Positions 1 to 19,645 of a DNA stretch of 26,786 nucleotides are shown here, piece by piece (position 1 is the first letter of the stretch; every line of letters starts with the position of its first letter). A program made the position numbers and the translations under genes. The stretch is from Actinomycetota bacterium (GTDB taxonomy: Bacteria > Actinomycetota > Actinomycetes > S36-B12): positions 1 to 26,786 of the forward strand of contig JAQCBM010000001.1 in NCBI GenBank assembly GCA_027729865.1, written 5' to 3'. The notes beneath the pieces are model-generated. The model searched no databases. It had not been told where the DNA came from and was given only the letters and a program-made list of their open reading frames with translations.

Positions 1-651
1 GTGTTCATTAGAGCCGTGCGTGTGGGGATCGTCTGTGCGATCGCATTGAGTATCGGATTCGCGACCCCTGCCGCTGCTGATAGCCGTCGTGATGCGATTC
101 GCGTGCTGAACTCGCTGCCGGTCTCAATCGAGCGACCGAATGGCTACGACCGAAACCTGTTCCGTCACTGGTCGGACCTCGATGGTGATGGCTGCAACAC
201 CCGCGAGGAAGTGTTGATCGATGAACGCGTCGCCGGGCAAGTGGTGGGTTGCGACGTGGTGGGCGGTCGATGGCGATCGGCATATGAAGGTGATGTCACT
301 ACCAACCCGAGTTCCTTCGACATTGATCACTTTGTACCGCTGAAGGAAGCGTGGGATTCCGGTGCGTGGCGATGGAATGCCGGTACGCGTGAACGCTTCG
401 CGAATGATCTCGGCTTCGCCGGCGCGTTGATCGCAGTTTCCGCATCGTCCAATCGAAGTAAGTCCGACCGTGATCCGGCGGAGTGGTTGCCCGAACGAGG
501 GGTGTGTAAGTATGCGAAGACGTGGGTGGCGGTGAAGTTCCGCTGGCGCTTGGCCGTAGACACCACCGAGAAGTCCGAACTCACCCGCATCCTGCGGGGC
601 TGTTCACCGAAGATGCGGGTGCCTTCGCTGGCGCGTGTGGTGACGCAGTAA
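1..651 (+). CDS. Secreted HNH-type endonuclease family protein (DUF1524-like); true start could lie upstream of the window
   Basis: 216-aa ORF. N-terminal basic/hydrophobic signal peptide ending in PAAA; DxDxDGCNTREEVL; HNH-like FDIDHFVPLKEAW...SASSNRSKSDRDPAEWLP, typical of secreted actinobacterial HNH proteins. Confidence 0.78.
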   Translation: MFIRAVRVGIVCAIALSIGFATPAAADSRRDAIRVLNSLPVSIERPNGYDRNLFRHWSDLDGDGCNTREEVLIDERVAGQVVGCDVVGGRWRSAYEGDVTTNPSSFDIDHFVPLKEAWDSGAWRWNAGTRERFANDLGFAGALIAVSASSNRSKSDRDPAEWLPERGVCKYAKTWVAVKFRWRLAVDTTEKSELTRILRGCSPKMRVPSLARVVTQ

Positions 652-658
652 TGGTTGT

Positions 659-1390
659 TTAGCGGGTGCGCAGGATGACGAACTGGAAGCGCCCCTCGAC
701 AAAGTAGGTCTTGCTGTACGCGACGGGTTCACCGGATCGGTCGTAGTGCACCTGGTCGAGGAGAATCAGAAGTTCGTCAGCAACGTGATCTTCTGCGATA
801 GGCACATCGCTGCCGCGCACGGCGTGGATCTCGGCCAGTGCACGGTTGGGAGTCAAGCCGATTCGGTCGAGCACAGCGAACACTGATCCATTGCCCAGTG
901 ATACGTCCTCACTCGCTGGAACCAGGTTCCCCGGAATAGCGTCGATGGAAATGGCCACCACTTCGCCATCGGCGAGTATCTCGCGGTGCACGGCCACGAT
1001 CTCGTCGTTGGCGTTCACGTCCAAACGTGCGCACTCGTTCTCGTCGGCCTGCCGCCGAGTGAGCGAAATCCGACGCACCTTCGCATCCAGACCAAGTTCC
1101 TCGATCGTCTCGGTGATCGAGCGCAGTTCCTGAAGACCCGATCGGATTTGGCCGCCGAAGTCCACTACGAACATGCCCGAACCGTGACGGATGTCGACCA
1201 GCCCCTGGGATTCCAGCGACTTCGCCGCAGTGCGAACTGTTACGCGGGACACCCGATAGCGCTCGCACAACTCCGCCTCGCTGGGCAGCCGGGAGCCGGG
1301 CGAGAACTCACCAGCGACGATGCGCCGGCGTAGGTCCTCGGTGATCTGCCGGGCGAGCGGGGTGCGGGGGGTTGTGGTGGAACTGGGCAT
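659..1390 (-). CDS. GntR family (HutC/UTRA subfamily) transcriptional regulator
   Basis: GntR wHTH (LPSEAELCERYRVSRVTVRTA...GSGMFV) plus C-terminal UTRA-like domain (SKTYFVEGRFQF). Start trimmed to ATG at 1390, preceded by SD GGGAGGAG; divergent from mtnA. Confidence 0.92.
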   Translation of the reverse strand: MPSSTTTPRTPLARQITEDLRRRIVAGEFSPGSRLPSEAELCERYRVSRVTVRTAAKSLESQGLVDIRHGSGMFVVDFGGQIRSGLQELRSITETIEELGLDAKVRRISLTRRQADENECARLDVNANDEIVAVHREILADGEVVAISIDAIPGNLVPASEDVSLGNGSVFAVLDRIGLTPNRALAEIHAVRGSDVPIAEDHVADELLILLDQVHYDRSGEPVAYSKTYFVEGRFQFVILRTR

Positions 1391-1424
1391 GACGGTGTCT
1401 CCTCCCTGCGTTAGCCTAGCGGCG

Positions 1425-1439
1425 AGTTGTAGGACAACT
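1425..1439. promoter_or_regulatory. Palindromic operator AGTTGT-AGG-ACAACT, probable binding site of the adjacent GntR
   Basis: Perfect 6-bp inverted repeat with a 3-nt spacer in the 66-bp gntR/mtnA intergenic region. Core GTA-G-GAC fits GntR-type GT(A/C)-N0-1-(G/T)AC palindromes. Lies just downstream of a candidate -10 (TAGCCT, 1412-1417). Confidence 0.68.
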
Positions 1440-1456
1440 GTTGTGTTGGAGGCAAA

Positions 1457-2497
1457 GTGTCGGAGATCCGGGCGGTTCGCTGGGATGCGCACTCGATCGT
1501 GCTCATCGATCAGACGAAGCTGCCGGCGGTCGAGACCGCTATGGAGTGCGCCACCGTCGATCAACTGGTGGACGCGATCGTCCGCCTGGTGGTTCGCGGT
1601 GCTCCGGCACTCGGCGCGGTCGGTGGATACGGCGTGGCCCTGGCGATGATCCAAGGTGAGCGCGACGGCTGGGATTCCACGCGGTTGAACGCGGAGATCG
1701 ACCGGATTCGAAATGCGCGACCCACTGCGGTGAACCTGGCGTGGGGAGTGGACCGGGTGCGTCCGTTGGTAAGTGACGGCGTGGACGCAGTACTTGCCGA
1801 AGCGCAGCGCATCGCAGATGAAGACGAAGCCGCTAATCGTGAACTCTCACGCAAGGGCGCGGACTGGATTCTCGCGAACACCACGCGTCGTCCGTTGCGG
1901 GTGTTAACCCACTGCAACACCGGATCTCTGGCAACCACCGCGTGGGGAACGGCACTGGGCATCGTGCGCGAACTCCACGGGCGCGGTGAGATCGAAATGG
2001 TTTACGCCGATGAGACGCGGCCGTTGCTACAAGGATCGCGGTTGACCTCGTGGGAACTCACCCAAGACGGAATTCCGCACGTGGTGCAGGTGGATGGCGC
2101 TGCTGCGTCCACGCTGCTGCGCGGTTTGGTGGATGTAGCGATCATCGGCGCCGATCGCATTGCGCGTAACGGCGACACCGCGAACAAGATCGGTTCGGTG
2201 GGTGTGGCACTGGGTTGTTCGGCCGCTGAGGTGCCGTTTGTGGTCGCGGCTCCGTCGTCGACAGTGGACCTGTCCACGGCCTCGGGTGAATCGATCGAGA
2301 TCGAACTGCGCGATGGCGCAGAGGTGACCGAGTTCCATGCCGAATCCGTGGCGCCGGAGGGAGCCAAAGGATTCAACCCGGCTTTCGATGTGACACCCGC
2401 GCAGTACATCTCGGCCATCGTGACCGAGCAGGGAGTCGTGGAACCAGCCGCTGGTGTGCTGGTGGACTCCCTCGTGCCGGAAGGGGAACGTCCATGA
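1457..2497 (+). CDS. mtnA: S-methyl-5-thioribose-1-phosphate isomerase (MtnA / eIF-2B-like family)
   Basis: Motifs LIDQTKLP, VRGAPALG, RPTAVNL, LTHCNTGSLAT, ETRPLLQGSRLT, GADRIARNGDTANKIG, NPAFDVTP; SD GGAGG before GTG. Confidence 0.92.
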   Translation: MSEIRAVRWDAHSIVLIDQTKLPAVETAMECATVDQLVDAIVRLVVRGAPALGAVGGYGVALAMIQGERDGWDSTRLNAEIDRIRNARPTAVNLAWGVDRVRPLVSDGVDAVLAEAQRIADEDEAANRELSRKGADWILANTTRRPLRVLTHCNTGSLATTAWGTALGIVRELHGRGEIEMVYADETRPLLQGSRLTSWELTQDGIPHVVQVDGAAASTLLRGLVDVAIIGADRIARNGDTANKIGSVGVALGCSAAEVPFVVAAPSSTVDLSTASGESIEIELRDGAEVTEFHAESVAPEGAKGFNPAFDVTPAQYISAIVTEQGVVEPAAGVLVDSLVPEGERP

Positions 2498-4482
2498 GCA
2501 ACGAAGCCATGCCAACAGCGCTGACCGAACTCGTTCAACGCTCCAACCGCATCGGAGACGACCCTTCCCTCGTTGTCTACGGAGGCGGCAACACCTCTGC
2601 TAAAGGTGTGATCGTTGATCACCTCGGCCGCGAGCAACAGGTGATGTGGGTTAAGGGATCCGGTGCGGACATGCGCGGGTCGGTTCTTTCCGACTACCCG
2701 GGTCTGCGCCTTGGCGAACTCACCGCACTGCGTGAACGCGGTGAGATGAGCGATGAGGAGATGACCGACCTCGTTACCCGTGCGCTGTTAGATCCATCCT
2801 CTCGCCGGCCATCGATCGAAACGCTGCTGCATGCGTTCTTGCCGTTCACCCACATTGACCATGTGCACGCCGATGCGATCTGTGCGCTTACCAACCACGC
2901 TGAAGGCAAGAAGATCACCCTTGAGGCGCTTGGCGAGGGATTCGCCTACGTGGACTGGCTGCGTCCGGGTTTCGAGCTCAGCAAGATCGTCGGTGAGCTC
3001 TCGCACTACGAGGGAGTAGTGCTTGCGCACCACGGGCTGATCACCTGGGGGGATTCTTCCGCTGCGTGCTACCAGCGCACTATCGACGTGGTGGATCAAG
3101 CGCGCGAGTTCGTTGCGGCCAACCGTGTTGGCGCCGGACCGCCGCCGCGCCATGACGACATCCCCGAGGACGAATTGCGTCGATTGCTGTTGCACCTGCG
3201 CGGTGCGGTGAGCGCAACGGGTCACCGAGTCCTGCGGGTGGACGAACGATTGCGTGAGGTTGCCGATCATCCGCAGGTGGACAAGATCGTGGCCGGTGGT
3301 GTGTCGAGTGCCGACCACATGTTGCGCATCAAGCCGCGCTCCGTGGTTGTTCCCTCGGTTGATCACGTGAGCTCGTCTGTTGGGGCTTACCGCGATGAGT
3401 ACCTCGCGTATGTGGAACGCAACCACGAGTTGATGCCGGAGGGTTTCGGACCGCACGATCCGATGCCGCGCGTGATGCTGGTGCCGGGCGTGGGTGCGGT
3501 GACGACCGGAACCTCAGGCAAGGACGCTGCCGTTGCCGCGGACATCGCTGTACACACGCACGACGTTGCGCGGACCGTGCTCGAGGCATTCGGAACACCC
3601 GAGCCGTTGAGTGGTCGGGAGACTTTCCGCTTCGATTACTGGCCGATGGAGCTCTACAAGCTCACGCTTAAGCCCGCGCCGGCCGAGTTCGCCGGACGAA
3701 TCGTGATCGTGACGGGTGCGGCATCAGGGATCGGTCGCGGGATCGCGCTGGAGTTGGGTGCGCGGGGGTGCTCGTTGGTCCTTGCGGACCTCGATGCCAA
3801 TGGTCTGGACGAGGTTGCAGGTTCCCTCGTTTCCGCGGGCGCGCCTGAACCCGTGGTGGTGGCCGGAGATCAGTCCGACTCGTCGGTCACCTCAGCCACG
3901 GTTCACCGTGCGGTGCGGCACTTCGGTGGGCTGGACGGCGTGGTGCTGAACGCGGGCGTGGGCGTCTCTGGGACGTTGACGGAACTGACCGACGAGCAGT
4001 GGAACACCGCACTGCAGGTGAACCTGACGAGCGCGTTCTCACTCACCCGTGAATCGATGCGCGCGATGCAAGAACAGAGTCTAGGCGGTTCCCTGGTGTT
4101 CGTTGCGAGCAAGAACGCTTTCGGTCCCGGTGCCGGCTTTGGTGCTTACTCGGTGTCCAAGGCCGGGATGATCCAACTGATGCGCATCGCAGCACTCGAA
4201 GGTGGCAAGCACCAGATCCGATCCAATGCGATCAACCCCGACGCGGTATTCGACAACTCGAAGTTGTGGGAGGGGGGCTTGCGTGAAGAGCGTGCAGCAG
4301 CCCACGGCATCGCACCGGAGGAACTCGAAGACTTCTACGCCTCACGCAACTTGCTCGGTCGCCGAGTGACCACGTCAGACGTTGCGCAGTCCGCAGCCTT
4401 CTTGCTGTCCGATCGTTCCTCGCGGACCACGGGTTCGGTCCTTACGGTGGACGGCGGGGTAGCGGTCGCGTTCCCGCGGTAG
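2494..4482 (+). CDS. Bifunctional class II aldolase / short-chain dehydrogenase (RhaD-ADH, RhaEW/YuxG-like fusion)
   Basis: N-terminal class II aldolase: YGGGNTSAK, VKGSG, RPSIETLLH, HIDHVHAD, HHGLITWG (Zn-binding His). C-terminal SDR: TGAASGIG, NAG, YSVSK. ATGA overlap with the mtnA stop. Substrate not certain. Confidence 0.86.
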   Translation: MSNEAMPTALTELVQRSNRIGDDPSLVVYGGGNTSAKGVIVDHLGREQQVMWVKGSGADMRGSVLSDYPGLRLGELTALRERGEMSDEEMTDLVTRALLDPSSRRPSIETLLHAFLPFTHIDHVHADAICALTNHAEGKKITLEALGEGFAYVDWLRPGFELSKIVGELSHYEGVVLAHHGLITWGDSSAACYQRTIDVVDQAREFVAANRVGAGPPPRHDDIPEDELRRLLLHLRGAVSATGHRVLRVDERLREVADHPQVDKIVAGGVSSADHMLRIKPRSVVVPSVDHVSSSVGAYRDEYLAYVERNHELMPEGFGPHDPMPRVMLVPGVGAVTTGTSGKDAAVAADIAVHTHDVARTVLEAFGTPEPLSGRETFRFDYWPMELYKLTLKPAPAEFAGRIVIVTGAASGIGRGIALELGARGCSLVLADLDANGLDEVAGSLVSAGAPEPVVVAGDQSDSSVTSATVHRAVRHFGGLDGVVLNAGVGVSGTLTELTDEQWNTALQVNLTSAFSLTRESMRAMQEQSLGGSLVFVASKNAFGPGAGFGAYSVSKAGMIQLMRIAALEGGKHQIRSNAINPDAVFDNSKLWEGGLREERAAAHGIAPEELEDFYASRNLLGRRVTTSDVAQSAAFLLSDRSSRTTGSVLTVDGGVAVAFPR

Positions 4483-4488
4483 TTGCTC

Positions 4489-5592
4489 CTACTGGCGTAG
4501 GGCTTCGACCATCGCACGCGAGTTTGTTGCGAGATCACCGCGGTGGAGCGCTCCGCCGATGAGAAGCGCGACGTTATCTCCGTAGAACTCGGTGAGTTCA
4601 CCGAGGCGGTCCAACGTCATGCCACCGCCCGGGCTTGGCCACGATCGCGCCAGGTTGCCCAGGGGTGCGTGGCATAGGTCCTTGATCTGCGCGCATTCGG
4701 CGGGTGAGAACGAGAATCGGCCGCCGTAGTTCGGAAAGATCGAGATGTCCGCTCCCGCTAGGCGCATCAAGGTCCCGAAAAGGATGCCGTGATCGATGCC
4801 CTGATCAGGGTTGACAACGTTCGATCCCAGGAACGATGGATGCGCCATGATCGGTAAGGCCAGGGAATCGTCGTCGGCCAGCATGCGCATCGCGTCGAAT
4901 CCCGACACCCCAGGAAGCACCAAGAGTGCACCAGCGCCGGCCTCCTTGGCCTCGTGCGCGGCATCGACGATCCGATCGGCGGGAACGTTCAAACTCGGCA
5001 TGTAGAGCGCGTTGGTTCCGGCTTGTTCACGTGCTTGATTGACGTGCTCTGCGATGACTCGAGTGCGTTCCTTCCAACGCGCCCACGGTTGATCGGCAAG
5101 ACCGTGGTCGTCTTTGATGATGTGGAAGCCAGCGCGGGTGATGGTCGCGGCCATCTCGCCGAGTCCTTGCGGATCGGTGCCCATCGGCTTCACCGCGGTG
5201 CAGACAAGTGGACCGGTGGGGGCATCGACGAGCGCGCGAAGTCCGTCGATGCCAAAGCGCGGACCACGAAAATCCGCGAGGTAGGAATCCGGCAAACGTA
5301 GGCCGGTGACGCGAACGCCCGGGAAGAGCGACACATTCCCCCACAGCACATTCAGCAGTTGAGTGATGCCGCCGCCGGCAACGCCGGGGTTGTAGGAAAT
5401 CGTGACGTTGTTTCCGCTGATGTTCTCAATGCGACCGACGACGGTTTCCTGGATCCACTCCGGAGCCAGATCGAACGGGAATTCGATGGTCTGCTCGACG
5501 CGGATCGCATCGGCGACTTCCCTGGAATCTCCAACCGAGATTCGGTAGTCGACAACGATGCGGTCTGCTGAGCCCGACGCGCTCGTTGTCAT
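4489..5592 (-). CDS. RuBisCO-like protein (form IV), resembling the R. rubrum 5-methylthioribulose-1-phosphate 1,3-isomerase type
   Basis: VEQTIE, NVLWGNVSL, GPRFGIDGLR, AVKPMG, IKDDHGLADQ (KDDH rather than KDDE), AHP, FPNYGGRF, PGGGM, LIGG. 367 aa, shorter than a true RbcL. ATGA-coupled to the upstream transketolase subunit. Confidence 0.9.
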   Translation of the reverse strand: MTTSASGSADRIVVDYRISVGDSREVADAIRVEQTIEFPFDLAPEWIQETVVGRIENISGNNVTISYNPGVAGGGITQLLNVLWGNVSLFPGVRVTGLRLPDSYLADFRGPRFGIDGLRALVDAPTGPLVCTAVKPMGTDPQGLGEMAATITRAGFHIIKDDHGLADQPWARWKERTRVIAEHVNQAREQAGTNALYMPSLNVPADRIVDAAHEAKEAGAGALLVLPGVSGFDAMRMLADDDSLALPIMAHPSFLGSNVVNPDQGIDHGILFGTLMRLAGADISIFPNYGGRFSFSPAECAQIKDLCHAPLGNLARSWPSPGGGMTLDRLGELTEFYGDNVALLIGGALHRGDLATNSRAMVEALRQ

Positions 5593-6629
5593 AGTGCTTC
5601 GACCTTGGCGCTGCTGTGGGTGGCGGCAACGCGAACCGGTGCGAGGTCGGCTGCATCGATACCGAACGTGCGTCCAAGGGCTTGTTCGGCTGTGCGCACT
5701 AAAGACATGGCGTCGAGGTCGTACTCGCGCAGCAGGTAGGCCTGCGACGCGCCATGTGCGTAGGTGTCGGGCAGCCCGATGCGGTGCAGCGGAGCTGCAA
5801 TGCCGTTCTCGGCCATAACCTCGGCTACCGCCGAACCCAAGCCACCGGTGATCAGGTGGTTCTCCATGGTGATCACACCGCTACGCGCACTACGCAGCGC
5901 TGTGAGCACGGTGGGATCGGTGAAGGGCTTGAGGGTTGAGACGTGCAGATGCGTGACTCTTGCGCCTGCATCTTGCAGCGCAGGAATGGCACGAAGTGCC
6001 TCTTCGGTTTCGATCCCGGACGTGAGCACCACGAGGTCCGCCGGATCCTCGATCGAGCTACCGGCGACCGACAGCACTCGTGCGGTGTTGAAGCGCATCG
6101 GCTCGGGGAACAGGCGCGGCACTTCGCCACGCAGCATGCGGATGTAGACCGGACCGTCGATGGCGTGCGCAACATCAAGCACGCTCTCCACCTCGGTGGC
6201 GTCGCCGGTTTCCAGGATCGTCATGTTCGGGATAGTTCGCATCACTGCAACGTCGTCGATCGCCTGGTGGGTCACGCCACCGGGAGTGGTGATACCGGGC
6301 AGGAAGCCGACCAGGCGCACCTTCAGGTTCGGGTACGCGATGGACATCTGCAGTTGATCGAGTGGGCGGCGGTACAAGAACACTGCGAACGTGTGCAGCC
6401 ACGGTTCGAAACCTTCGCGAGCGAGCCCAGCAGCGAAGCCGAGCATGTTCTGTTCGGCCATGCCCATGGAGAAGAAGCGCTCGGGGTAGGTGTCGCGCCA
6501 CTTGCCGACTTCGCACGAGTTGGTGAGGTCCGCGCTGAGCACCACAACCTCGGGCTTATCGGCCGACCAACGAATGAAGTTCTCTACGTGTGGGCGGCTG
6601 ACGATCTCTACGTCCGTTTTCGCGCTCAT
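5589..6629 (-). CDS. Transketolase-family C-terminal (pyrimidine-binding + C-terminal domain) subunit
   Basis: LSADL, PERFFSMGMAEQNM, THQAIDD, GPVYIRMLR, TLKPF, ENHLITGGLGSAVAE; ATGA overlaps at both ends. Confidence 0.9.
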   Translation of the reverse strand: MSAKTDVEIVSRPHVENFIRWSADKPEVVVLSADLTNSCEVGKWRDTYPERFFSMGMAEQNMLGFAAGLAREGFEPWLHTFAVFLYRRPLDQLQMSIAYPNLKVRLVGFLPGITTPGGVTHQAIDDVAVMRTIPNMTILETGDATEVESVLDVAHAIDGPVYIRMLRGEVPRLFPEPMRFNTARVLSVAGSSIEDPADLVVLTSGIETEEALRAIPALQDAGARVTHLHVSTLKPFTDPTVLTALRSARSGVITMENHLITGGLGSAVAEVMAENGIAAPLHRIGLPDTYAHGASQAYLLREYDLDAMSLVRTAEQALGRTFGIDAADLAPVRVAATHSSAKVEAL

Positions 6630-7537
6630 GAAGTGGCTCCGATCAGAACGTCGTCGTAGAACTTCTGGTACTCGGCTCGTTCCTCAGGACCGGTGAAGCG
6701 CAGGTAGTGCAAAACAGGTCGACGATCATTGAGCAGCGGCACACCGCGCGCGGGATCGGTATACGCGAGGACGAAGTGCGGTTTGCCGGTGGGGCGTTCG
6801 AGCGATGAGGTGAGAGCCGCGATGTCGTGGCCATCGACCGAGTCCACACTCGCACCGAATGCCTTGAGTTTGGTTGCTAGCGGTTCGATTGTCATGACCG
6901 AATCCATCGGGCCATCGCACTGCGCGCGATTTACATCGACCACCACGCGCACCGTGTCGAGTCGATAGAAGGCAAGTGCCTGGATTGCTTCCCAGGTTTG
7001 CCCTTCTTGGAATTCACCGTCGCTCATGAACACGAACGTGCGACCGGTCTCCTTCTTCAAGCGCCGACCCAGGGCGATGCCGCCGGCGGTGGACAGCGCT
7101 TGCGCGAGGGACCCTGTGGTGGTTTCGAAGCCGGGCGAGTGTTCGGCGCCGATCATCTCGACGGTGGAACCGTCTTTGTTGAACTGATCGAGTGCGGCCT
7201 CGTCCAGGCGCCCGGCCTCGATGAGTGCTGCGTAGACCACCAGGGCGTAGTGCGCGGGGGAGACGATCAACCGGTCGAGGTCTGGACCCGGCTCGCCGTG
7301 GAATACCCCGCCGGATACGCGCGGGGCGTCTGGTCCGGGAACAGCCTCGATGGCAGGCGGGTGCAGCGGCCCGTCGGTGGGGGCGAGCTTGAGCACCGAG
7401 GCGTAGAGGGCGGCGAGCAGTTCGGCTGAGGAACAGGCTTGGCTGAGATAGCCGCCGTTGTTGGCCAGCACGTGGGCCAGGACCCGGCGGCGGATGCCCG
7501 CGGCCATGAGTGTGGGTTCGATTGTCGATTGAGGCAC
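6626..7537 (-). CDS. Transketolase-family N-terminal (ThDP-binding) subunit
   Basis: TGSLAQALS, ThDP motif [13 protein letters not shown]...DVN, VDGHD. Start set at GTG 7537 because a -35/-10 pair sits 6 nt upstream; ATG 7507 is the alternative. The longer ORF-track start at 7837 overlaps xylB. Confidence 0.87.
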
Positions 7538-7543
7538 GTGGCC

Positions 7544-7572
7544 AGGGTACAAAGAGGTAGGTCGTCCTACAA
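7544..7572 (-). promoter_or_regulatory. Housekeeping-sigma-type promoter of the transketolase-RLP operon, probably leaderless
   Basis: Minus strand reads TTGTAG (7572-7567) - 17 nt - TACCCT (7549-7544) - 6 nt - GTG (7537); no SD present. Confidence 0.62.
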
Positions 7573-7574
7573 GT
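7560..7574 (-). promoter_or_regulatory. Second copy of the putative GntR operator (ACTTGTAGGACGACC), overlapping the -35 element
   Basis: 12/15 identical to the 1425-1439 palindrome, with a perfect 9-bp core TTGTAGGAC. Confidence 0.62.
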
Positions 7575-7615
7575 CTGTATTTGTTCACCGGGGTGGATGT
7601 GGCACGGTTCCACCC

Positions 7616-9049
7616 ATGGCAGCAGAAAAACTCGTCGCGGGGGTAGATACCTCGACCCAGTCGGTGAAGGTGGTCGTGCGCGATGCGCAGACCGGGGCGT
7701 GGGTGCGCGAAGGTCGGGCGGCGCACCCCGATGGCACCGAGGTGGACCCCGGTGTCTGGTGGCAGGCGTTCGTGCAGGCGTGCTCGGGCGGATTGCTCGA
7801 AGGAGTGTCCGCGATCTCGGTTGCCGGCCAACAGCACGGCATGGTCGCTCTGGATGAAACCGGCGCTGTTGTGCGACCTGCGTTGTTGTGGAACGACACC
7901 CGCTCGGCTGCCGACGCAACTGAACTCACGGCCGAACTCGGTGGACCCGCAGCGTGGGCCGAAGCAGTGGGCAGCGTTCCCCTCGCCGCATTCACCGTCA
8001 GCAAGGTGCGGTGGATGGCGCGCAATGAACCGGACAACGCAGCGCGCACGTCAACGATCATGCTTCCGCACGACTACCTGACCTGGATGCTCGCCGATCG
8101 CCCGAATGACGCTGTTACCGATCGCGGCGATGCCAGTGGAACCGGCTATTGGTCGCCGGCAACCGGTGAGTACCGCCGCGACATTCTGATCGCGGCTCTT
8201 GGTCACGATGTTTCTTTGCCGCGCGTTGCGGGACCTTTCGAAGTGGTGGGCGAACTTGGTGGTCAAGCCCGCGCGCTACTGGGAATCAGCGGTAGCCATC
8301 CGATCCTCTTGGGACCGGGAACCGGCGACAACATGGGTGCGGCCTTGTCCTTGGGAATCGGTCCCGGTGACGTAGTGGTGTCTTTGGGAACCTCCGGAAC
8401 AGCCTTCGCAGGATCGGATGCGCCCACTGCGGATCCGACCGGACTTGTCGCAGGATTCGCCGATGCGAGTGGACGTTTCCTGCCGCTGGTGTGCACGTTG
8501 AATGCCGCCCGAGTGCTCACGAGCACCGCGGAATTGCTGGGCGTGGATATGAACGAGTTCGCACGACTCGCTCTGAGCGCCGCACCTGGTGCCAGTGGGT
8601 TGACGATGCTGCCGTACTTCGACGGTGAGCGGACACCGAACCTTCCTGATGCGCGCGGCTCGCTGCACGGCATCAGCCGCGACAATCTGACACCTCCCAA
8701 CATCGCGCGAGCGGCAGTCGAAGGCATGCTCGGTGGCCTCGCCGACGCGGTTGATGCGCTGGTGGATGTGGGTGTGGAACCCCGGCGCGTTCTGCTAGTC
8801 GGTGGTGCTGCTGCGAATCCTGCTGTGGTCGAGGTTGCAGCGACGTTGGTCGATGCCCCGGTGGAAGTTCCGCCGGCCGGCGAATACGTGGCCGACGGGG
8901 CTGCCCGCCAAGCCGCATGGGTTCTGTTGGGGGACGGTATGCCGGCGTGGCCGGCTGTGCGTGAAGGTGAGACAGATCGGCGCGACGCGAACCCGGTGTC
9001 GCAGGTTCGGCTCCAGTACCGAGATGCCCGGGAGGCTTTGTACTCGTGA
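7616..9049 (+). CDS. xylB: FGGY-family carbohydrate kinase, xylulokinase-like
   Basis: [52 protein letters not shown]. Start trimmed to ATG 7616 ([11 protein letters not shown]). Confidence 0.85.
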
Positions 9050-10245
9050 TCGAAGGGGGAGGACTCTCGCGGGTACTGCGCGCACTGCACGCCGCGGGAG
9101 CCCTGACCCGCTCCGATCTCGGTTCCTTGACCGGTTTGAATCGCAGCACTGTTGCCACGATCGTCAATGAACTCGTCGCCGCAGGCGTAGTCGAAGAAGG
9201 CGCCGGTGCTTCCGGTGGGGTGGGTCGGCCGTCACTAGTGGTGCGGGCGGTCCCCGATTCGGTTGCCGTCATCGGATGGGACATCCGTGCGGATTCCAGT
9301 ACCGCAGTAGTGGAAGGAATCGGGGGACAGATCCTGCATCGATGGTCGAAGGCGCATCGTCGCGGCTCCACCGATCCGTATGAGGTTGCCGCGCGCGTGG
9401 TCGCGGGGAGTTCGCAGATTGCTGAGGAACTGCCCGACCACGTGCTGTGGGTTGGCGTGGGGTGCGCGCTGCCCGGGATCATCGACCCCGGAGGTGACCC
9501 GCCGCGCAGCACCATCCACCGCGCGCCAACACTTGGCTGGGTGGATACGCCCTTCGGCGTGATCTTGTCCGAAGCGATGAGCGAGCAGTTCGGTTCCCAG
9601 GTTCCGGTTGTGCTCGGCAACGACGCGAACCTCGGTGCGATGGCCGAGTGGACACGCGGCGCCGGAAAGCGAAGCCGCGTGATGGTGTTCGTCTCGGGCG
9701 ATGTAGGTATCGGTGGTGGCGTGATCGTCGACGGTGAACCGTTGACGGGCGCATCCGGATTTGCCGGCGAGATCGGTCACATTCGCTTCGATCCCAATGG
9801 TGCTCCGTGTCGATGCGGTTCGCGCGGATGCTGGGAGACGGTGATTGGTCTGACCACCATCGTGTCCGCCGCTGGACTGGATCCTCTCAAGGCAGGAATC
9901 GACGACGTCCTATCGGCTGCGCAGGCAGGTGATGCGACGTGTCAATCGGCGCTCGCTGCCGCTGCCCGCGCGGTGGGCCAAGGTTTGGCACCGGTGGTGA
10001 ACATGGTGAACCCCGACACCATCGTGTTAGCCGGGCATCTCGAGGTTCTCTTGGAGCACTACCGACACACGATCATCGAGGAATTGCGCTTCACCCTGTC
10101 TCGTGAAAGCACGGATATCCGCGTCGTAGGACCAGCTCTTGGGTCCGACAGCATCGTGGTAGGTGCCGCCGAACTCGCCTTTGAGCGAGCACTCGATCGA
10201 CCGCAAAGGTGGCTGACTGCGCCGGAATCACTCCGAAGCGAATAA
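9046..10245 (+). CDS. ROK-family transcriptional repressor (XylR-like)
   Basis: N-terminal HTH ([17 protein letters not shown]), [20 protein letters not shown]...[10 protein letters not shown] Zn motif; GTGA overlap with the xylB stop. Confidence 0.9.
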
Positions 10246-10338
10246 CTGACTACCCGATTTCGTTCCGCATGGGGAAATGTGACCAGGTAATTGCACCGAT
10301 CTGCGGACAGGAGTCCCGCCGATAGGCACACTTTCCGA

Positions 10339-10428
10339 CAGTCGCCACCCCCCTGGCGACTGGAGTGCGCCTCGCGCGCTTCGGGAACCCGCGCGACAAC
10401 CCCCCAGCCGCGCGGGTTCCGCCTTTTT
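10339..10428 (+). ncRNA. 6C RNA (actinobacterial small RNA with two C-rich-loop hairpins)
   Basis: Hairpin 1: CAGTCGCCA-CCCCCC-TGGCGACTG (9 bp, loop of 6 C). Hairpin 2: GGAACCCGCGCG-ACAACCCCCCAGC-CGCGCGGGTTCC (12 bp, loop with 6 C), followed by GCCTTTTT. This is the defining 6C architecture. Candidate -10 CACACT at 10327-10332. Ends approximate. Confidence 0.85.
10384..10428 (+). terminator. Intrinsic terminator formed by the second 6C hairpin plus U-tract
   Basis: 12-bp perfect GC-rich stem (10384-10395/10409-10420) followed by TTTTT at 10424-10428. Confidence 0.6.
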
Positions 10429-10485
10429 CCTGGTCTCGCTAGGCGCGAGACTCGTGTTCCCTGGTCTCGCTAGGCGCGAGACTCG
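10429..10485. repeat. Tandem duplication of a 26-bp hairpin-forming unit (31-bp period)
   Basis: CCTGGTCTCGCTAGGCGCGAGACTCG at 10429-10454 and 10460-10485. Each copy contains the stem GTCTCGC-N5-GCGAGAC. The second copy contains the stop codon of the 515-aa gene. Confidence 0.9.
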
Positions 10486-12017
10486 AACATCCCCAGCAGG
10501 GCTGCCACCCCCAGCACCGAGCGCGGTGCGTAAGCCGCACGCCACAGTCCGCCGTGGTTCGCGCCTCTGGCGAACAGATCCATGGGATTGGTGAGTGGGG
10601 TGGCCGGGTTGGCTGACGACGCCGGGTTGCGCAGATCGTGCACGAGCATGGCCGCCATCAAAGTGGTTGAGGTCGATGGGTCAAAAACCTCCACACCGAA
10701 CTTGTCGGCACCTGCGTACGCAGCGGCGAGCGCTCGGTTGCGGACAACGGAGCGCGTGCGCGTTGCTGGAGCGAGGTTCAGCGAGACGGGAATGCCGTCC
10801 GCACGAGCGGCGAGCGCCCGCCACCGTTGGATGCGCTTGGCCAAGATGTAGTTCGGTCCTTGCTGGGGAATGATCGAATCATTCAAGCCGATGCGTTGAC
10901 CGCTGAGCGTTGTGTATGTGGTCGGGTAATTGGGTTCGAACTGGTTCGCAATTCGCAGCGGGGCCTGCAGCAGACCACCGATACCTCTATTACCCCAGCG
11001 CCGCTTGCTCTCCTCGACGCATTCGATGGGAACGACGAACACGTCGGTGGGAGTGGCCAGGAACGCCAGCGTTAGGTCGGAGCGCTCAGCTGCAAGGGAA
11101 GTTGTGATCGCATCGCTGGCCACGGACAAAAGCGCATGCGTTGCTCCGTCGGCATACGCATAAGTGCCGAGAACAAAGGGTTGGTCGATCTCGGATAGCC
11201 AGGTGCGGACCTCGGGTGCTTGTGTCAGAAGGTCGGCACCGGCTGATGCGCAGATCGTGGCGTCGTCGTCGGGATGAACATCCCCGCCCACCACGAAAGG
11301 TGGATTTCCCTCGGCATCCAGGGAGATTGGAATGCGCAATGTTCCAGCAGTGCTGCGGGTGATGGAAGTCAGGTGCTCCCAGATCGCCGGGCGCGGGAGA
11401 TCAACCGCGTGCACACGAGCACCCCAGCGAAGAAGTGATCGGGTGGGTGCCATCTCCGCGCCGGCTCCGAGCAAGGCGATGTCGATATCGCGTAGGTCGA
11501 GCCAATCGGGGTTGTCCATGACGAGGTGGATCGCTGCACCGAAGGACGGTTCGGCTATTCCACGTTGGACCCACGAGTCGACCTGACGTCGCAGTTCGTC
11601 GCCGAATAAGCGGCGTCCTTTGTAGGGGACAGAAAGGTCTTCATCCCGGGTGGATCGTCCTCTGACGGTTACCGAAGCCAGCCCGGGTGCAGTGAATTCC
11701 GTGAAGGCTTCGCGTAGCGATACCTCGTTCCCGTTTCGACGGAAGGTGAAACGCTGGTCGGTCGATGCCAGTCCGTGCCGGGAAATCGACAGCGCGTTCT
11801 CCGTCGATTGCGCAGCAGCTAGGACTATGTCGCGTAATGGGGCGATGTATCCCTTGCGCCAATCGCGAGTGTGCTCGATTCGAGGAGTAATGGCTGGATC
11901 CACTGCGCGGATCGAATCGGCGAAGATTGCTCGCCCGGTTGCCGAAGTGCTGCGCCGATCATCCCCGCCTAGCGGGAAACACACACCGTCCACGTTCACG
12001 GAGCGGGGATCGGGCAT
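10470..12017 (-). CDS. Hypothetical protein with Rossmann/SDR-like motifs
   Basis: 515-aa ORF; leaderless signature TATTCT-N6-ATG; IDIALLGAGAE glycine-rich motif, VHAVD, and YxxxK (NYILAK). Function unknown. Confidence 0.75.
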   Translation of the reverse strand: MPDPRSVNVDGVCFPLGGDDRRSTSATGRAIFADSIRAVDPAITPRIEHTRDWRKGYIAPLRDIVLAAAQSTENALSISRHGLASTDQRFTFRRNGNEVSLREAFTEFTAPGLASVTVRGRSTRDEDLSVPYKGRRLFGDELRRQVDSWVQRGIAEPSFGAAIHLVMDNPDWLDLRDIDIALLGAGAEMAPTRSLLRWGARVHAVDLPRPAIWEHLTSITRSTAGTLRIPISLDAEGNPPFVVGGDVHPDDDATICASAGADLLTQAPEVRTWLSEIDQPFVLGTYAYADGATHALLSVASDAITTSLAAERSDLTLAFLATPTDVFVVPIECVEESKRRWGNRGIGGLLQAPLRIANQFEPNYPTTYTTLSGQRIGLNDSIIPQQGPNYILAKRIQRWRALAARADGIPVSLNLAPATRTRSVVRNRALAAAYAGADKFGVEVFDPSTSTTLMAAMLVHDLRNPASSANPATPLTNPMDLFARGANHGGLWRAAYAPRSVLGVAALLGMFESRA

Positions 12018-13060: not shown

Positions 13061-14241
13061 GTGTGTGCGTTGCGCCGTTCGCTCAGGGCCCAGCGATACA
13101 CATCCATGGTCTGTTCGGCGATTGCGCCCCAACTGAAGTGCTCGATCGCGCGCGTTCGCCCGTTCTTGCCATAAGCGGCGGCCTTTGCTTCGTCACTCAT
13201 GAGTTCGTTTACCGCTGCAGCGAATGCCTGCTCGAACGCTTGCTCGTTACTCGGGTCGTAAGGAACCAGGGTGCCGGTCACGCCGTCTTCGACGACCTCG
13301 GGAATGCCGCCCACCGCGCTGGCTACTACGGCCGTCTCGCAGGCCATGGCCTCGAGGTTCACGATGCCCAGAGGTTCGTAGATGGATGGACACGTGAACA
13401 CCCGCGCGTGCGTGAGTAGTTCGATCAGGCTGTCCTTATCCACCTGCTGCTCGATCCAGATCACCGAATCGGGGCGGCGCTCGGCGCGAAGGATCTCAAT
13501 CGCTTGGGCCGTCTCCGCAGCGATCTCAGGAGTGTCGGGCGAGGATGCGCACAACACAAGGTTCACGTTCGCGTCGAAGTTTCGCGCCGAGCGCAGCAAA
13601 TGGATGAGCCCCTTCTGGCGGGTGATGCGGCCGACGAACAATGCGTAGGGACGTGACTGATCGATACCGAAACGCTCAAGCACGGCGGTGTTTGCGTGCG
13701 GGCGGTAGATGTCGGTGTCGATGCCGTTATGGACTACGTGGACCTTGGCTGGATCCACATCGGGATACGCACCGAGAATGTCTGCCTTCATCCCATTACT
13801 GACCGCGATGATCGCATCGCTGGATTGGCAACTGGTGCGCTCGACCCACGATGAAATCTCGTAGCCACCTGCGAGTTGCTCGCGCTTCCACGGCCGAAGC
13901 GGTTCGAGTGAGTGCGCGGTGAGCACATGCGGAATATCCAGCAGCAAGGAAGCGAGGTGTCCGGCCAGGTTTGCGTACCAGGTGTGCGAGTGCACCACGT
14001 CGGTTGCTGCATCGATCGAGGCGACCATGCCGAGGTCCACGCCCAGGGTCTGCAGCGCCGGATTCGCATCGCGCAGGTAGTCGGGTACTGGGTGAGCAAG
14101 CGCATCTGGCCTCGGTTGACCGAAGCATTGAACGGTCACTTCAGCGAGTTCACGAAGATGCGCCACAAGTTGGTCGACGTGTACTCCGGCGCCACCGTAG
14201 ATGTCCGGTGGCCATTCCCTGGTCAGCATGGCTATGCGCAC
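13057..14241 (-). CDS. glgA: GT4 glycosyltransferase GlgA (actinobacterial GlgM, alpha-maltose-1-phosphate synthase type)
   Basis: [70 protein letters not shown] 14241 lies 8 nt after a TAGGCT -10. Divergent from glgC as in other actinobacteria. Confidence 0.92.
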
Positions 14242-17204: not shown

Positions 17205-18137
17205 TTAGGAGCGCGGCAGTTGGTGCTGCTCTACCGCATAGGCACGCGGACCGTCGGGTGTCCATTCCCGATGGATGATCACCATGCCACCGGGAGCAAG
17301 GCGGGTATCCCACAACGGATCGGCATGGGTGTCTTCCGGTGTGAGGTTCAACCCCGCAGCGAGAGCGGAGAGCACAGTCGGCAGGACGGGCCGATGAGTG
17401 CAGACAACCATGGGTGCTGGATCGACTAGTAACTCGGTGACGCGTTTCTCAGTAACCGAAGGATCGAATGCGTGCCCCGATTCACTGATGGCTGCCTCGA
17501 GCTGCACATCCACGCCGATCGATTTCGCGTAGCGGTTAACCGTTGACAGACACCTCTTGAACGGCGAGGAATACACCCGTTCGATTCCATAGGCATCAAG
17601 AACGTCGGTGAGTCGCTTGGCTTCACCCCTACCTCTGCCCGACAGGGGTCGATCGGCGTCGTCATCTCCATCGAAGTCAGCGCGCTTCATCGCCTTTGCG
17701 TGCCGCAGGATGATCAGCGGAGTTGTGGGGGGCGCGGTGATTGCGTGCTTCACTAAGGCAGCGTCGTCCGGGTAGGTCAAGAAATCCTCGGCACCGGACA
17801 CTGGCACCCAGCGGATCTCGTCTACTTCCTCATCGGGGGCGAATCCTTCGTCACCTCGCACGCGACCGATCCAGTAGTCGACGACCTTGTTCTGACCGTC
17901 CGCTGTGTAGTGCAAGCTGGGTAGGCGCGTTGAGAGCGAAACCTGGAAGCCGGTCTCTTCGTCGCATTCGCGCACGGCAGCGCACGGCAGTGTCTCGCCG
18001 GCATCCACCTTGCCTTTGGGAAGCGACCAGTCTTTGCGGCTGGGTCGATGGACTGCCAGGAAGTGCTGATCGGGGTCCATTTCCGGGTGGAAGACCACCA
18101 CTCCGGCGGCGCGGATCGGTTCAGTTTCCTTGGCCAT
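17205..18137 (-). CDS. mutT1: Nudix hydrolase - histidine phosphatase fusion (MutT1-like)
   Basis: WSLPKGKVDAGETLPCAAVRECDEETG Nudix box; C-terminal LRHAKA...RPLS...SSPFKRC phosphatase fold; TGATG overlap with the CHAD stop; downstream of ppk1. Confidence 0.85.
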   Translation of the reverse strand: MAKETEPIRAAGVVVFHPEMDPDQHFLAVHRPSRKDWSLPKGKVDAGETLPCAAVRECDEETGFQVSLSTRLPSLHYTADGQNKVVDYWIGRVRGDEGFAPDEEVDEIRWVPVSGAEDFLTYPDDAALVKHAITAPPTTPLIILRHAKAMKRADFDGDDDADRPLSGRGRGEAKRLTDVLDAYGIERVYSSPFKRCLSTVNRYAKSIGVDVQLEAAISESGHAFDPSVTEKRVTELLVDPAPMVVCTHRPVLPTVLSALAAGLNLTPEDTHADPLWDTRLAPGGMVIIHREWTPDGPRAYAVEQHQLPRS

Positions 18138-19645
18138 CAGCGAAGTCCGAGTGAGTGAGCTTGGTGGGCGATATCTGGCCAACGCTTCACGAACGCGCGA
18201 ACGTCGTCGTCGCCCGCCGCTGCGCAGGTGGCTGAGTGAAGCCCCAACCGGTAGGCAATCGGCGAGGGCGCCGATTCGGCGATCTCCTCAAGCGTGTGGA
18301 TGGACACCTGTGCATCTTGCCGGGATCCGAGCGTGTCGGTGACCCAAGCCAGAGATTTCCCCAAGCGGCGGTAGCCCTCACCGAAGATGGGAGCAACCGC
18401 TTCGGCTGCGTAACGGGCCTTCTTGGCGTTAATGCGAATGCGGTGCCACTGTTCCGCGGGAGTGTTGAGGTCTGAACCCTTCACGCTACGACGCAGTTTC
18501 CGCCAGGGGGCGTCCACGCATTCGAGAATCGCGGCGCCAACCGGTTCGAAGGCGCGCGGACCCACTGGTGGCTCGCTGACTAGGAGGATCAGATCCTCGA
18601 TCAGGAAATCGTGTCGGTCGCTGCGAAGTGCAGCAAGGGCACTGGAGCGCGCGGCCCGAAGTCTTTGCTCGAGATATTCGACAACGAACGCGCACGCATC
18701 GTGGTCGTGGATGTCCTCACTCAAGGCGGCGAGTTGGACCTCGGTGTCACGCACCTGGCCGAGTTCGGTGGCCAGCCATGCCAATTCCTCGCGCAGGAAT
18801 GACGTCGTCTCGGTGTCCAGCAGGGGCCGGAAGGTGGTGAGTGCTGCGCGAAGTCGTCTACAGGCGACCCGCATTTGGTGCACGGAGTCAGGGAGGTTGC
18901 GCCGTACACCAACATCCGCCATCAATAGATCACGCACGTAACGGCTGAAGATTGCCTGCAGGGCATTGATCGCAGGGGCATCAAGGTCCGGGTAATCCAA
19001 GATGGGAACGTCGGGTGGATCACCAGCGCGGCGACCAAGCGCCTGCGCAGCCTTGCTGAGGGAACTGGGTTCGGCCCCAGCGCTCAACAGCGCTGCGCTG
19101 ACGACGCTGGCAAGTTCCGCACCGGCCCGCGAATCGTCAAGCAATTCGACTTCCACTTCTCGGAACACTGTGCTCGGAGTCGATCCGGGAGTGCCCACAC
19201 TTACCCGATCATCAACCACTTCGACGAGGTGATCGTCGGTTTCACCCTTGATCAGGAACGGCGTGCGCTCGGTATTCACCTGAGCCATAGCGGTGATGTC
19301 CTGGCGACGAATCAATGGCGCGGCGATGGAAGCTAGTTCTACCGGCACGGCATCTGCTGGCTTATCGACACGGATTTCATCTCGAGAACTCGAGCCGGCA
19401 GATGGTGCGGTCGGCACTTTCATGTGCCAGCCATCGTCACCGCCTCCAGTGCGGTGGCGAAGGGTGATACCCCACCTCAGCAGGTTCAGGTTGGGGGTGT
19501 CGTAGTACGTGGCAGACATCGACCGAACAGGCTCTCGCGAGAACTGAGTGTCCGCGCCGCGAAGGAGCTCCTCCAGATCCAACGTCACATCCGCGGGAAC
19601 CCGGTACTTGAACTCGATTTCCCGGTGCTCGGTAACGCCGCTCAC
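18137..19645 (-). CDS. CYTH + CHAD domain protein (polyphosphate-associated)
   Basis: N-terminal EIEFKY (ExExK), YYDTP..L...[16 protein letters not shown]; CHAD motifs [12 protein letters not shown] and [12 protein letters not shown]; in an operon with ppk1. Confidence 0.9.

Follow-up and report, generated by a model that had tools for sequence, protein, structure and literature searches.

What does an RLP (RuBisCO-like protein) do beside a methylthioribose-phosphate isomerase and a split transketolase, and which of the neighbouring genes belong with it? The question is raised by a 26,786-nucleotide stretch of DNA, here called the window (GenBank assembly GCA_027729865.1, contig JAQCBM010000001.1, positions 1 to 26,786), from an actinobacterium of the lineage S36-B12. 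The source genome is a metagenome-assembled genome (MAG) of 2.4 Mb, 82% complete. Near the left end of the window lie genes for the MtnA isomerase, for an aldolase of class II fused to a short-chain dehydrogenase/reductase (SDR), the RLP and the two subunits of a transketolase-like (Tkt-like) enzyme dependent on thiamine diphosphate (ThDP). On balance, the locus is probably a horizontally acquired island of six genes which has its own GntR/UTRA repressor and AGTTGTAGGACAACT-type operators, and which salvages ribose-1-phosphates derived from S-adenosylmethionine (SAM) by two branches. The gene identities, the structure of the island, the shared operator, the conserved pairing of genes, the gene fusions and the active-site changes described below are direct observations.

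A six-gene island

All eight genes named in a first-pass annotation of the window are present in the open reading frame (ORF) listing and in Pfam/NCBIfam scans; three gene starts were corrected. The gene identities and the translational coupling claimed in that annotation are borne out by the listing, by the family scans and by four-base start/stop overlaps at mtnA/aldolase-SDR, tktN/tktC, tktC/RLP and xylB/ROK. The mtnA and tktN operons are convergent, and their stop codons (4482 and 4489) are 6 bp apart. The features of the locus, by window position, are:

652-658, no strand: left edge of the island, the gap that separates the stop codons of GmrSD_C (651) and gntR (659)
659-1390, minus strand: GntR-family regulator with UTRA effector domain (HutC-type), 243 aa (Pfam GntR 3.6e-21, UTRA 8e-20)
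1425-1439, no strand: predicted operator O1, a perfect palindrome AGTTGTAGGACAACT in the gntR/mtnA spacer
1457-2497, plus strand: MtnA isomerase (TIGR00512 395.3 bits, cut-off 279)
2494-4482, plus strand: fusion of a class II aldolase (long RhaD type) and an SDR (NAD-type) (Pfam Aldolase_II and adh_short)
4489-5592, minus strand: RLP, form IV, 367 aa (PDB 3qfw, 3.7e-59)
5589-6629, minus strand: Tkt-like C subunit, TktC, with Transket_pyr and Transketolase_C domains (PDB 6yaj, 3.5e-57)
6626-7507, minus strand: Tkt-like N subunit, TktN, with a ThDP/Mg-binding Transketolase_N domain (PDB 6yak, 3.3e-37)
7560-7574, no strand: predicted operator O2, an imperfect copy reading ACTTGTAGGACGACC on the minus strand, in the tktN/xylB spacer
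7616-9049 (likely), plus strand: xylB (TIGR01312 404 bits, cut-off 380)
9046-10245, plus strand: ROK regulator with N-terminal helix-turn-helix (HTH) (ORF listing and family scans)

The gntR ORF was listed as 659-1654 (minus strand), and the GntR domain begins at residue 100 of that longer frame; the start was reassigned to the ATG at 1390, which is preceded by GGGAGGAG. The tktN ORF extends to 7837. Its likely start is the ATG at 7507, which gives a protein of 293 aa; homologues have 291-315 aa.

The pathway unit consists of six genes (gntR, mtnA, aldolase-SDR, RLP, tktC and tktN) and occupies about 6.9 kb, from roughly 652 to 7597 of the window. Within the genus, 17 of 19 genomes have the RLP; in 41 genomes from other genera of the same family or order it was not found. 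At 13 same-genus loci the gene order is fixed: GmrSD, GntR, MtnA, aldolase-SDR, RLP, TktC, TktN, XylB, (ROK), hyp515, EamA, GlgA, GlgC. Two genomes are free of the island, one of the same genus (G002) and one of another genus (G029); in both the order is hyp515-ROK-XylB-GmrSD, with GmrSD directly beside XylB. At the G002 junction the xylB leader ATGTGGCACGGTTCC is retained, with no island sequence and no O2. These intact empty sites place the island at about 652-7597 and identify xylB-ROK as ancestral backbone. Likewise, no xylB was found near the RLP at the RLP loci examined outside the genus. The xylB-ROK genes, which the first-pass annotation named as flanking the cluster, are therefore judged not to belong to the unit.

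The leader ATGTGGCACGGTTCC lies at 7597-7615, directly upstream of the xylB start, and is invariant in all same-genus loci and in G002. Because the island-free site retains it, the element may belong to xylB itself as a leader, or serve as a ROK/XylR site.

Two assemblies of the genus carry unusual copies of the island. In a five-contig assembly (G005:C3:1142290-1143391; L033/L074) the RLP gene is in two pieces, covering residues 1-246 and 245-367, and the matches to the aldolase-SDR and MtnA are likewise shortened; these are either frameshifts of long-read assembly or decay of the island. Another MAG (G001) holds two diverged island copies, on contigs C5 and C134 (L027 and L038), with RLPs 87% and 81% identical to that of the window. 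These are probably two strains binned together (contamination 4%).

Conservation of the gene pairing

The gene directly upstream of the RLP was recorded at 64 RLP loci with enough upstream sequence; the loci are interrelated, and the counts are descriptive rather than statistical. It encodes TktC at 45 of the 64 (13/13 in the genus and 32/51 outside it), the aldolase-SDR at the other 19, and never anything else. Among 22 loci outside the genus with at least 6 kb on each side, MtnA lies within 10 kb of the RLP at 18, the aldolase-SDR at 18 and TktC at 15. The TktN-TktC-RLP triad recurs in distant lineages, also with RLPs that are only 46% identical. Together with the synteny of the 13 same-genus loci, this means that the arrangement is not due to chance. 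Organisms with the Tkt-like/RLP pair include Nanopelagicales from fresh water as well as the cultured Georgenia and Ornithinimicrobium.

The proposed link to MtnA-type substrates is likewise upheld by what lies within 10 kb of the RLP elsewhere: MtnA, MtnK-type APH kinases, nucleoside phosphorylases, a deaminase and ribose-type importers. An APH-type (MtnK-like) kinase and a ribose-type ABC importer are recurrent neighbours. The Georgenia cluster additionally has two nucleoside phosphorylases, an amidohydrolase and a nucleoside importer. Neither MtnX nor MtnD was seen in any RLP locus examined.

The triad also occurs in another context (L003, L005, L070, L098 and L125), with a divergent DeoC-family gene (possibly LsrF-like), a small cupin_2 protein, a PfkB kinase, a GFO/IDH/MocA oxidoreductase, a protein of sugar-phosphate isomerase fold and Dak1/Dak2. 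No mtnA lies within 10 kb in this context. In cultured Ornithinimicrobium cavernae (L128) two RLP paralogues (10001-11092 and 13098-13751) lie within 3 kb, beside the Tkt-like pair.

Predicted GntR regulon and operator

The regulator has an N-terminal GntR winged HTH and a C-terminal UTRA domain, and a conserved palindrome is present in both island promoters, as befits the GntR-HutC group. Its gene adjoins mtnA across the genus, in Georgenia and in other lineages. O1 lies within the 66-bp divergent region between gntR and mtnA, just 3' of a TAGCCT -10-like hexamer and 5' of the mtnA Shine-Dalgarno sequence. All 10 same-genus loci examined keep the O1 core, [G/C]TTGTAGGACAACT, unaltered, and only one or two leading bases vary. 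In Georgenia sp. H159 the corresponding position between gntR and mtnA reads AGTTGTCGGACAAC. O2 is conserved in 11 of 11 same-genus loci and is a perfect palindrome in three.

The 9-mer TTGTAGGAC occurs in the window only in O1 and O2 (0.06 expected; two copies in 0 of 100 shuffles), and the exact palindrome AGTTGTAGGACAACT has a single copy, O1, in the 2.4-Mb genome. The only copy in the genome with one mismatch lies inside a long ORF on contig C226. Genome-wide, 53 sites match with up to three mismatches; as the reversed control gives 93, these amount to noise. The single GntR regulon proposed earlier is thus supported for both island promoters: the same palindrome lies in both predicted promoter regions and is kept genus-wide, and the mtnA-promoter copy is shared with Georgenia.

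A copy with two mismatches, AATTGTTGGACAACT (G000:C195:14102-14116), overlaps the start of the genuine RhaEW gene of the genome. It may be a chance match or a site for a related GntR regulator of rhamnose genes.

RuBisCO-like protein

The RLP is the only RuBisCO-family gene in the genome. Its closest solved relative is 3qfw (204 bits, 3.7e-59); 4nas, 2qyg, 1tel and 2oek, which include Photo- and YkrW-type proteins, score 113-123 bits, and no other RLP or RuBisCO structure exceeds 123. The motifs KDDHGLADQ, AHP, FPNYGGRF and LLIGG are common to the RLP and 3qfw. Carboxylating RuBisCO is marked by KDDE (metal and carbamate), K175-x-K177 and the loop-6 Lys. The RLP has KDDH and KPM in place of the first two, a short N-terminus and no loop-6 Lys region. 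Its best NCBIfam match is the mtnW family, at 178.9 bits, far under the cut-off of 409.

There are 1656 relatives of the RLP in a 50%-identity library, and not all are paired with a Tkt-like enzyme. Twenty unusually long relatives were scanned for domains. Fourteen, which are 37-50% identical to the RLP, are RLP-cupin_2 fusions, and one (P0157) is a natural fusion of RLP and Transketolase_N. In Rhodospirillum rubrum and Rhodopseudomonas palustris the cupin beside the DeepYkr RLP is a 1-methylthio-xylulose-5-P methylsulfurylase (PMC5893883). The cupin_2 fusions tie the RLP family to this chemistry. No convincing match to the cupin partner was found in the source genome (best E 6e-4; 82% complete) or in five island-bearing genomes of the same genus.

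Another of the 20 long relatives (P0171, 726 aa) is a phosphatase of the inositol-monophosphatase family fused to an RLP. In some organisms, this fusion suggests, the RLP may be associated with the removal of a phosphate.

Split transketolase-like enzyme

TktN and TktC match the split transketolase of Carboxydothermus (6yak and 6yaj), and TktC also matches 1-deoxy-xylulose-5-P (DXP) synthases (8a29, 3.4e-33). Scores against transketolase models are low. The two halves reach 52.6 and 44.3 bits on TIGR00232 (cut-off 682), as against 753 for the housekeeping Tkt of the genome and 159 and 63 for a second split Tkt, and in NCBIfam they reach at best 144.9 and 194.4 bits, where the cut-off is 488. 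The first-pass label 'atypical' was thus apt.

Active-site residues were compared by aligning the island enzyme with the Tkt paralogues of the genome and with orthologues from Georgenia and a metagenome contig; the numbering follows E. coli TktA. SDGE and DVN (ThDP/Mg), AEQ, H66, S385, E411, H473 and R520 are retained. H26 is replaced by Tyr, H100 is lost, H461 is replaced by Leu and D469 by Gly. Among the fetched loci these changes are family-wide (H26 in 45/49 members, H100 in 46/49, H461 and D469 each in 55/56), and they are also present in the lineage whose RLP is only 46% identical. The family has in addition an insertion of about 26 residues in the N subunit and a conserved, family-specific C-terminal tail in the C subunit.

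In canonical transketolase H26 and H100 contact the C1 and C3 hydroxyls of the donor, H461 binds phosphate, and D469 determines stereospecificity at the C4 hydroxyl. Loss of H26 and H100 together with a kept phosphate site would fit a phosphorylated ketose that lacks the C1 hydroxyl, and such a ketose is the expected product of the RLP. In the P0157 fusion the Tkt part, 57% identical to TktN, shows these hallmark residues too; a TktC-type ORF follows it.

The second split Tkt of the genome (G000 contig C394:970-2558; L044/L045) keeps H26 and H461 and has Tyr at the D469 position (GFYGTSH). By sequence it is another non-canonical Tkt.

MtnA, aldolase-SDR and substrate supply

MtnA is identified by sequence as a 5-methylthioribose-1-phosphate (and 5-deoxyribose-1-phosphate) isomerase. 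It scores above the TIGR00512 equivalog cut-off and matches PDB 1t9k (1.4e-77). Aligned with 1t9k, it keeps the motifs THCNTG (THCNTGSLAT) and GADRIA (GADRIARNGDTANKIG), which hold the catalytic Cys (TxCNxG) and Asp (GADRI) of the Bacillus subtilis enzyme.

The aldolase-SDR reaches 546.6 bits on the RhaEW model TIGR02632, under the cut-off of 567.75, and its gene adjoins mtnA rather than rhamnose genes. A genuine RhaEW is encoded elsewhere in the genome (contig C195; 1005.5 bits) and is 37.5% identical end to end to the island protein. In both, the motifs for metal (HxH/H) and dinucleotide (TGxxxGIG) and the catalytic Ser/YxxxK are intact. Given the intact motifs and the separate true RhaEW, the island enzyme can be seen as an intact paralogue recruited to mtnA. 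The coupling of MtnA to an enzyme of class II aldolase fold and a dehydrogenase would provide the parts of the dihydroxyacetone phosphate (DHAP) shunt, with an aldolase that is not of the Ald2/DrdA type. A stand-alone SDR beside the RLP in Georgenia has 27%, generic similarity to the SDR domain of the island and has no bearing on a shared aldehyde step.

The island itself has neither a kinase nor an importer. The first-pass annotation looked to the rest of the genome for mtnP, mtnK and the cupin; in the 82% complete genome neither MtnK nor a convincing cupin was found, and the search turned up instead an S-methyl-5'-thioinosine phosphorylase (247.8 bits, cut-off 223) beside a TRZ/ATZ-family deaminase on contig C39. 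The deaminase also matches the '5'-deoxyadenosine deaminase' model, below the cut-off of that model. Its counterpart in Georgenia is the set of phosphorylase and deaminase genes next to the cluster there. The C39 pair would probably supply 5-substituted ribose-1-phosphates from endogenous nucleosides, with no kinase or importer required.

Proposed pathway

The substrates and products named here, the direction of the SDR and the whole of the Tkt-like reaction are what we infer from the genes. The GntR/UTRA repressor would bind the AGTTGTAGGACAACT-type operators in both island promoters. The target compounds would be 5-methylthioribose-1-P, from methylthioadenosine (MTA), and 5-deoxyribose-1-P, from 5'-deoxyadenosine, supplied from elsewhere in the genome via the deaminase beside the methylthioinosine phosphorylase. 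MtnA would convert them to 5-substituted ribulose-1-phosphates. In one branch the aldolase domain may cleave these to DHAP and 2-(methylthio)acetaldehyde or acetaldehyde, and the fused SDR would then oxidise or reduce the aldehyde, in what would amount to a DHAP shunt with fused enzymes. In the other branch the RLP would isomerise them to 1-methylthio-xylulose-5-P, or to DXP in the deoxy series. The split ThDP enzyme would cleave the C2-C3 bond of this product to give glyceraldehyde-3-P and a ThDP-bound two-carbon unit, which could either leave as an aldehyde or first lose methanethiol and then leave as an acetyl unit.

A more specific proposal is doubtful and is put forward tentatively: that the RLP-linked split Tkt is a new ThDP enzyme which converts 1-methylthio-xylulose-5-P to glyceraldehyde-3-P, with methanethiol expelled from the enamine and an acetyl unit left. 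Analogies are phosphoketolase, which expels water, and sulfoacetaldehyde acetyltransferase, which expels sulfite. If true, it would be a third route for recovering the sulfur and all the carbon of MTA, independent of cupin, glutathione and oxygen. It would be found in actinobacteria that abound in aquatic habitats and, with the protein in fused form, in one further organism at least.

Assessment of the two-branch reading

The first-pass annotation also held that the ThDP enzyme stands in place of the cupin, and this is borne out in part. In its favour are the long RLP relatives, which are fused to cupin_2 in 14 of 20 cases and to TktN in one, and a survey of RLP-bearing genomes with the cupin domain of an RLP-cupin fusion as query. 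Of the genomes without the Tkt-like enzyme, 12/14 hold a cupin 39-42% identical to the query (E about 1e-22), as against 4/26 of those with it, a distribution which fits 'cupin or ThDP enzyme after the RLP' but is confounded by phylogeny and MAG incompleteness. The replacement is not a strict either/or: four genomes have both, and a different, small cupin_2 protein stands beside the triad at some loci.

Several further points weigh, like these last, against the two-branch reading. An MtnA-aldolase-SDR-RLP operon is present in five complete genomes of Nanopelagicaceae, IMCC26103 among them, and these genomes lack an orthologue of the Tkt-like enzyme throughout; their best matches are ordinary split Tkts, 32-34% identical. 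The Tkt-like enzyme is therefore optional rather than obligatory beside the RLP, and in that sense dispensable. A substrate of the xylulose-5-P type gives no obvious reason to expect that D469 and H461 should be lost. RhaD-type aldolases prefer a C4 configuration other than that of ribulose-1-P. Placing the RLP with the DeepYkr type presumes that 3qfw is the DeepYkr RLP of R. palustris. As to expression, contigs of two marine metatranscriptome libraries match pieces of the aldolase-SDR, RLP, TktC, TktN, xylB and ROK genes, some of them mismatch-free, and one runs through the intergenic region into xylB; being sparse and unstranded, with possible DNA carry-over, they weakly suggest that the island genes are transcribed. 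As to novelty, both fates of methylthioribulose-1-P in one organism are already known from R. palustris and R. rubrum (PMC5893883).

Other explanations differ in which substrates enter the locus and in what the RLP makes of them. The locus might serve the 5-deoxy series only (5'-deoxyadenosine, radical-SAM). The RLP would then convert 5-deoxyribulose-1-P straight to DXP, which feeds the synthesis of isoprenoids, thiamine and pyridoxal. The Tkt-like enzyme would cleave DXP as an overflow valve (a 'reverse DXS'), and DHAP plus acetate or ethanol would come from the aldolase-SDR. A directly useful RLP product would account for the operons without the Tkt-like enzyme, TktC resembles DXS (8a29), the C39 deaminase matches the 5'-deoxyadenosine deaminase model, albeit below its cut-off, and the loss of the His residues that bind the C1 hydroxyl fits a 1-deoxy ketose. 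We nevertheless judge this restriction unlikely: RLP relatives are fused to the cupin that removes the methylthio group, genomes without the Tkt-like enzyme mostly hold that cupin, and contexts of the MtnK/MtnA type serve both series (PMC6079011). A variant of classical methionine salvage would take the aldolase fold as an MtnB-type dehydratase and the RLP as an MtnW-type enolase acting on the diketone, with the SDR and ThDP enzymes processing the resulting diketone or acireductone. The order MtnA, class II aldolase fold, RLP does mirror MtnA-MtnB-MtnW, mtnW is the best NCBIfam match of the RLP, and ThDP enzymes can cleave 1,2-diketones. This variant becomes improbable once the scores are considered, as the mtnW match (178.9 bits) is far below its cut-off and solved YkrW-type enolases reach at most 113 bits against 204 for 3qfw. 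The aldolase domain, moreover, is of the long RhaD type, in a protein 37.5% identical end to end to genuine RhaEW, MtnX and MtnD are missing from every locus examined, and the cupin_2 fusions indicate an RLP of the isomerase type.

Ordinary pentose or sugar catabolism, with a true transketolase acting on xylulose-5-P made by XylB, and with the RLP and xylB-ROK as parts of one system, is suggested by the divergent arrangement of tktN and xylB with O2 between them, and by the RNA-library contig that spans this intergenic region into xylB. It is very improbable. The xylB-ROK genes stand beside GmrSD in the island-free genomes G002 and G029 and are backbone, the RLP loci examined outside the genus have no xylB, the residues that bind the donor C1 and C3 hydroxyls and the C4 hydroxyl are replaced, and the genome has a housekeeping Tkt. 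Two-branch salvage of the methylthio or the deoxy compounds, or of both, is the reading we retain as the likeliest.

Comparison with known systems

All cells produce MTA and 5'-deoxyadenosine, whose accumulation is toxic. Classical methionine salvage, the DHAP shunt and the RLP/cupin isoprenoid shunt are the known bacterial disposal routes. The island points to a further disposal branch with two uncharacterised players, a thiamine enzyme stripped of its donor site and an aldolase-dehydrogenase fusion.

In the MTA-isoprenoid shunt of R. rubrum and R. palustris (MtnP, MtnA, DeepYkr RLP and cupin; PMC5893883), as in the proposed pathway, MtnA is followed by an RLP in an oxygen-independent route. 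The likeness extends to the RLP itself, whose nearest solved relative is 3qfw and many of whose relatives are fused to cupin_2. The island differs in having a coupled, remodelled ThDP enzyme beside the RLP, with no such cupin in the genome (82% complete) or in five genomes of the genus. Supply is probably by deaminase and methylthioinosine phosphorylase rather than MtnP, and all is gathered in one island under a predicted repressor. The DHAP shunt (MtnP or MtnK, MtnA, Ald2/DrdA and an alcohol dehydrogenase; PMC5893883, PMC6079011) shares with the island MtnA, an enzyme of class II aldolase fold and a dehydrogenase for the aldehyde. By sequence comparison, however, the island aldolase is of the long RhaD/RhaEW type and fused to an SDR, and not of the short Ald2/DrdA type.

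RhaEW, the bifunctional rhamnulose-1-phosphate aldolase/lactaldehyde dehydrogenase (TIGR02632), has the same two-domain architecture, and its metal and SDR motifs are kept in the island fusion. The latter falls below the family cut-off, is 37.5% identical to the RhaEW of its own genome and sits with mtnA and the RLP. The split-chain transketolase of Carboxydothermus hydrogenoformans (6yak/6yaj) and DXP synthase have the same two-subunit ThDP fold and domain order as the island enzyme. The latter also keeps the cofactor motifs, together with the Glu for activation and the Arg and Ser for phosphate binding. It departs from them in the four replaced or lost residues (H26Tyr, H100, H461Leu and D469Gly), the 26-residue insertion and the C-terminal tail, and enzymes of the island type are always beside or fused to an RLP.

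No paper linking an RLP with a transketolase-type enzyme was found in the literature searched, which did not extend to subscription journals, and the earlier statement that the combination is not a described pathway stands for that literature. What appears to be new is that the partner is a ThDP enzyme, that a fused aldolase-SDR has this role, that the whole is integrated under one GntR and that the six genes form a mobile unit. The RLP/Tkt-like pair is widespread, and the compact six-gene island with its predicted operator is a ready-made unit for heterologous expression.

Other features of the window

An Rfam scan of positions 1-10600 (E up to 0.1) gave no riboswitch and no other RNA family. 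Next to the ROK gene, at 10470-12017 (minus strand), is the gene for hyp515, a 515-aa protein with no Pfam/NCBIfam match; it is 67-90% identical and syntenic beside ROK/XylB family-wide, including in genera free of the island. The remainder of the window is housekeeping (glgA/glgC, ppk1, CYTH-CHAD and glnR). A polyphosphate gene group at 17205-21798 (minus strand) encodes, in one direction, a NUDIX-histidine phosphatase fusion, a CYTH-CHAD protein and polyphosphate kinase 1. The window stretch was detected in aquatic, marine and estuarine metagenomes from 12 studies.

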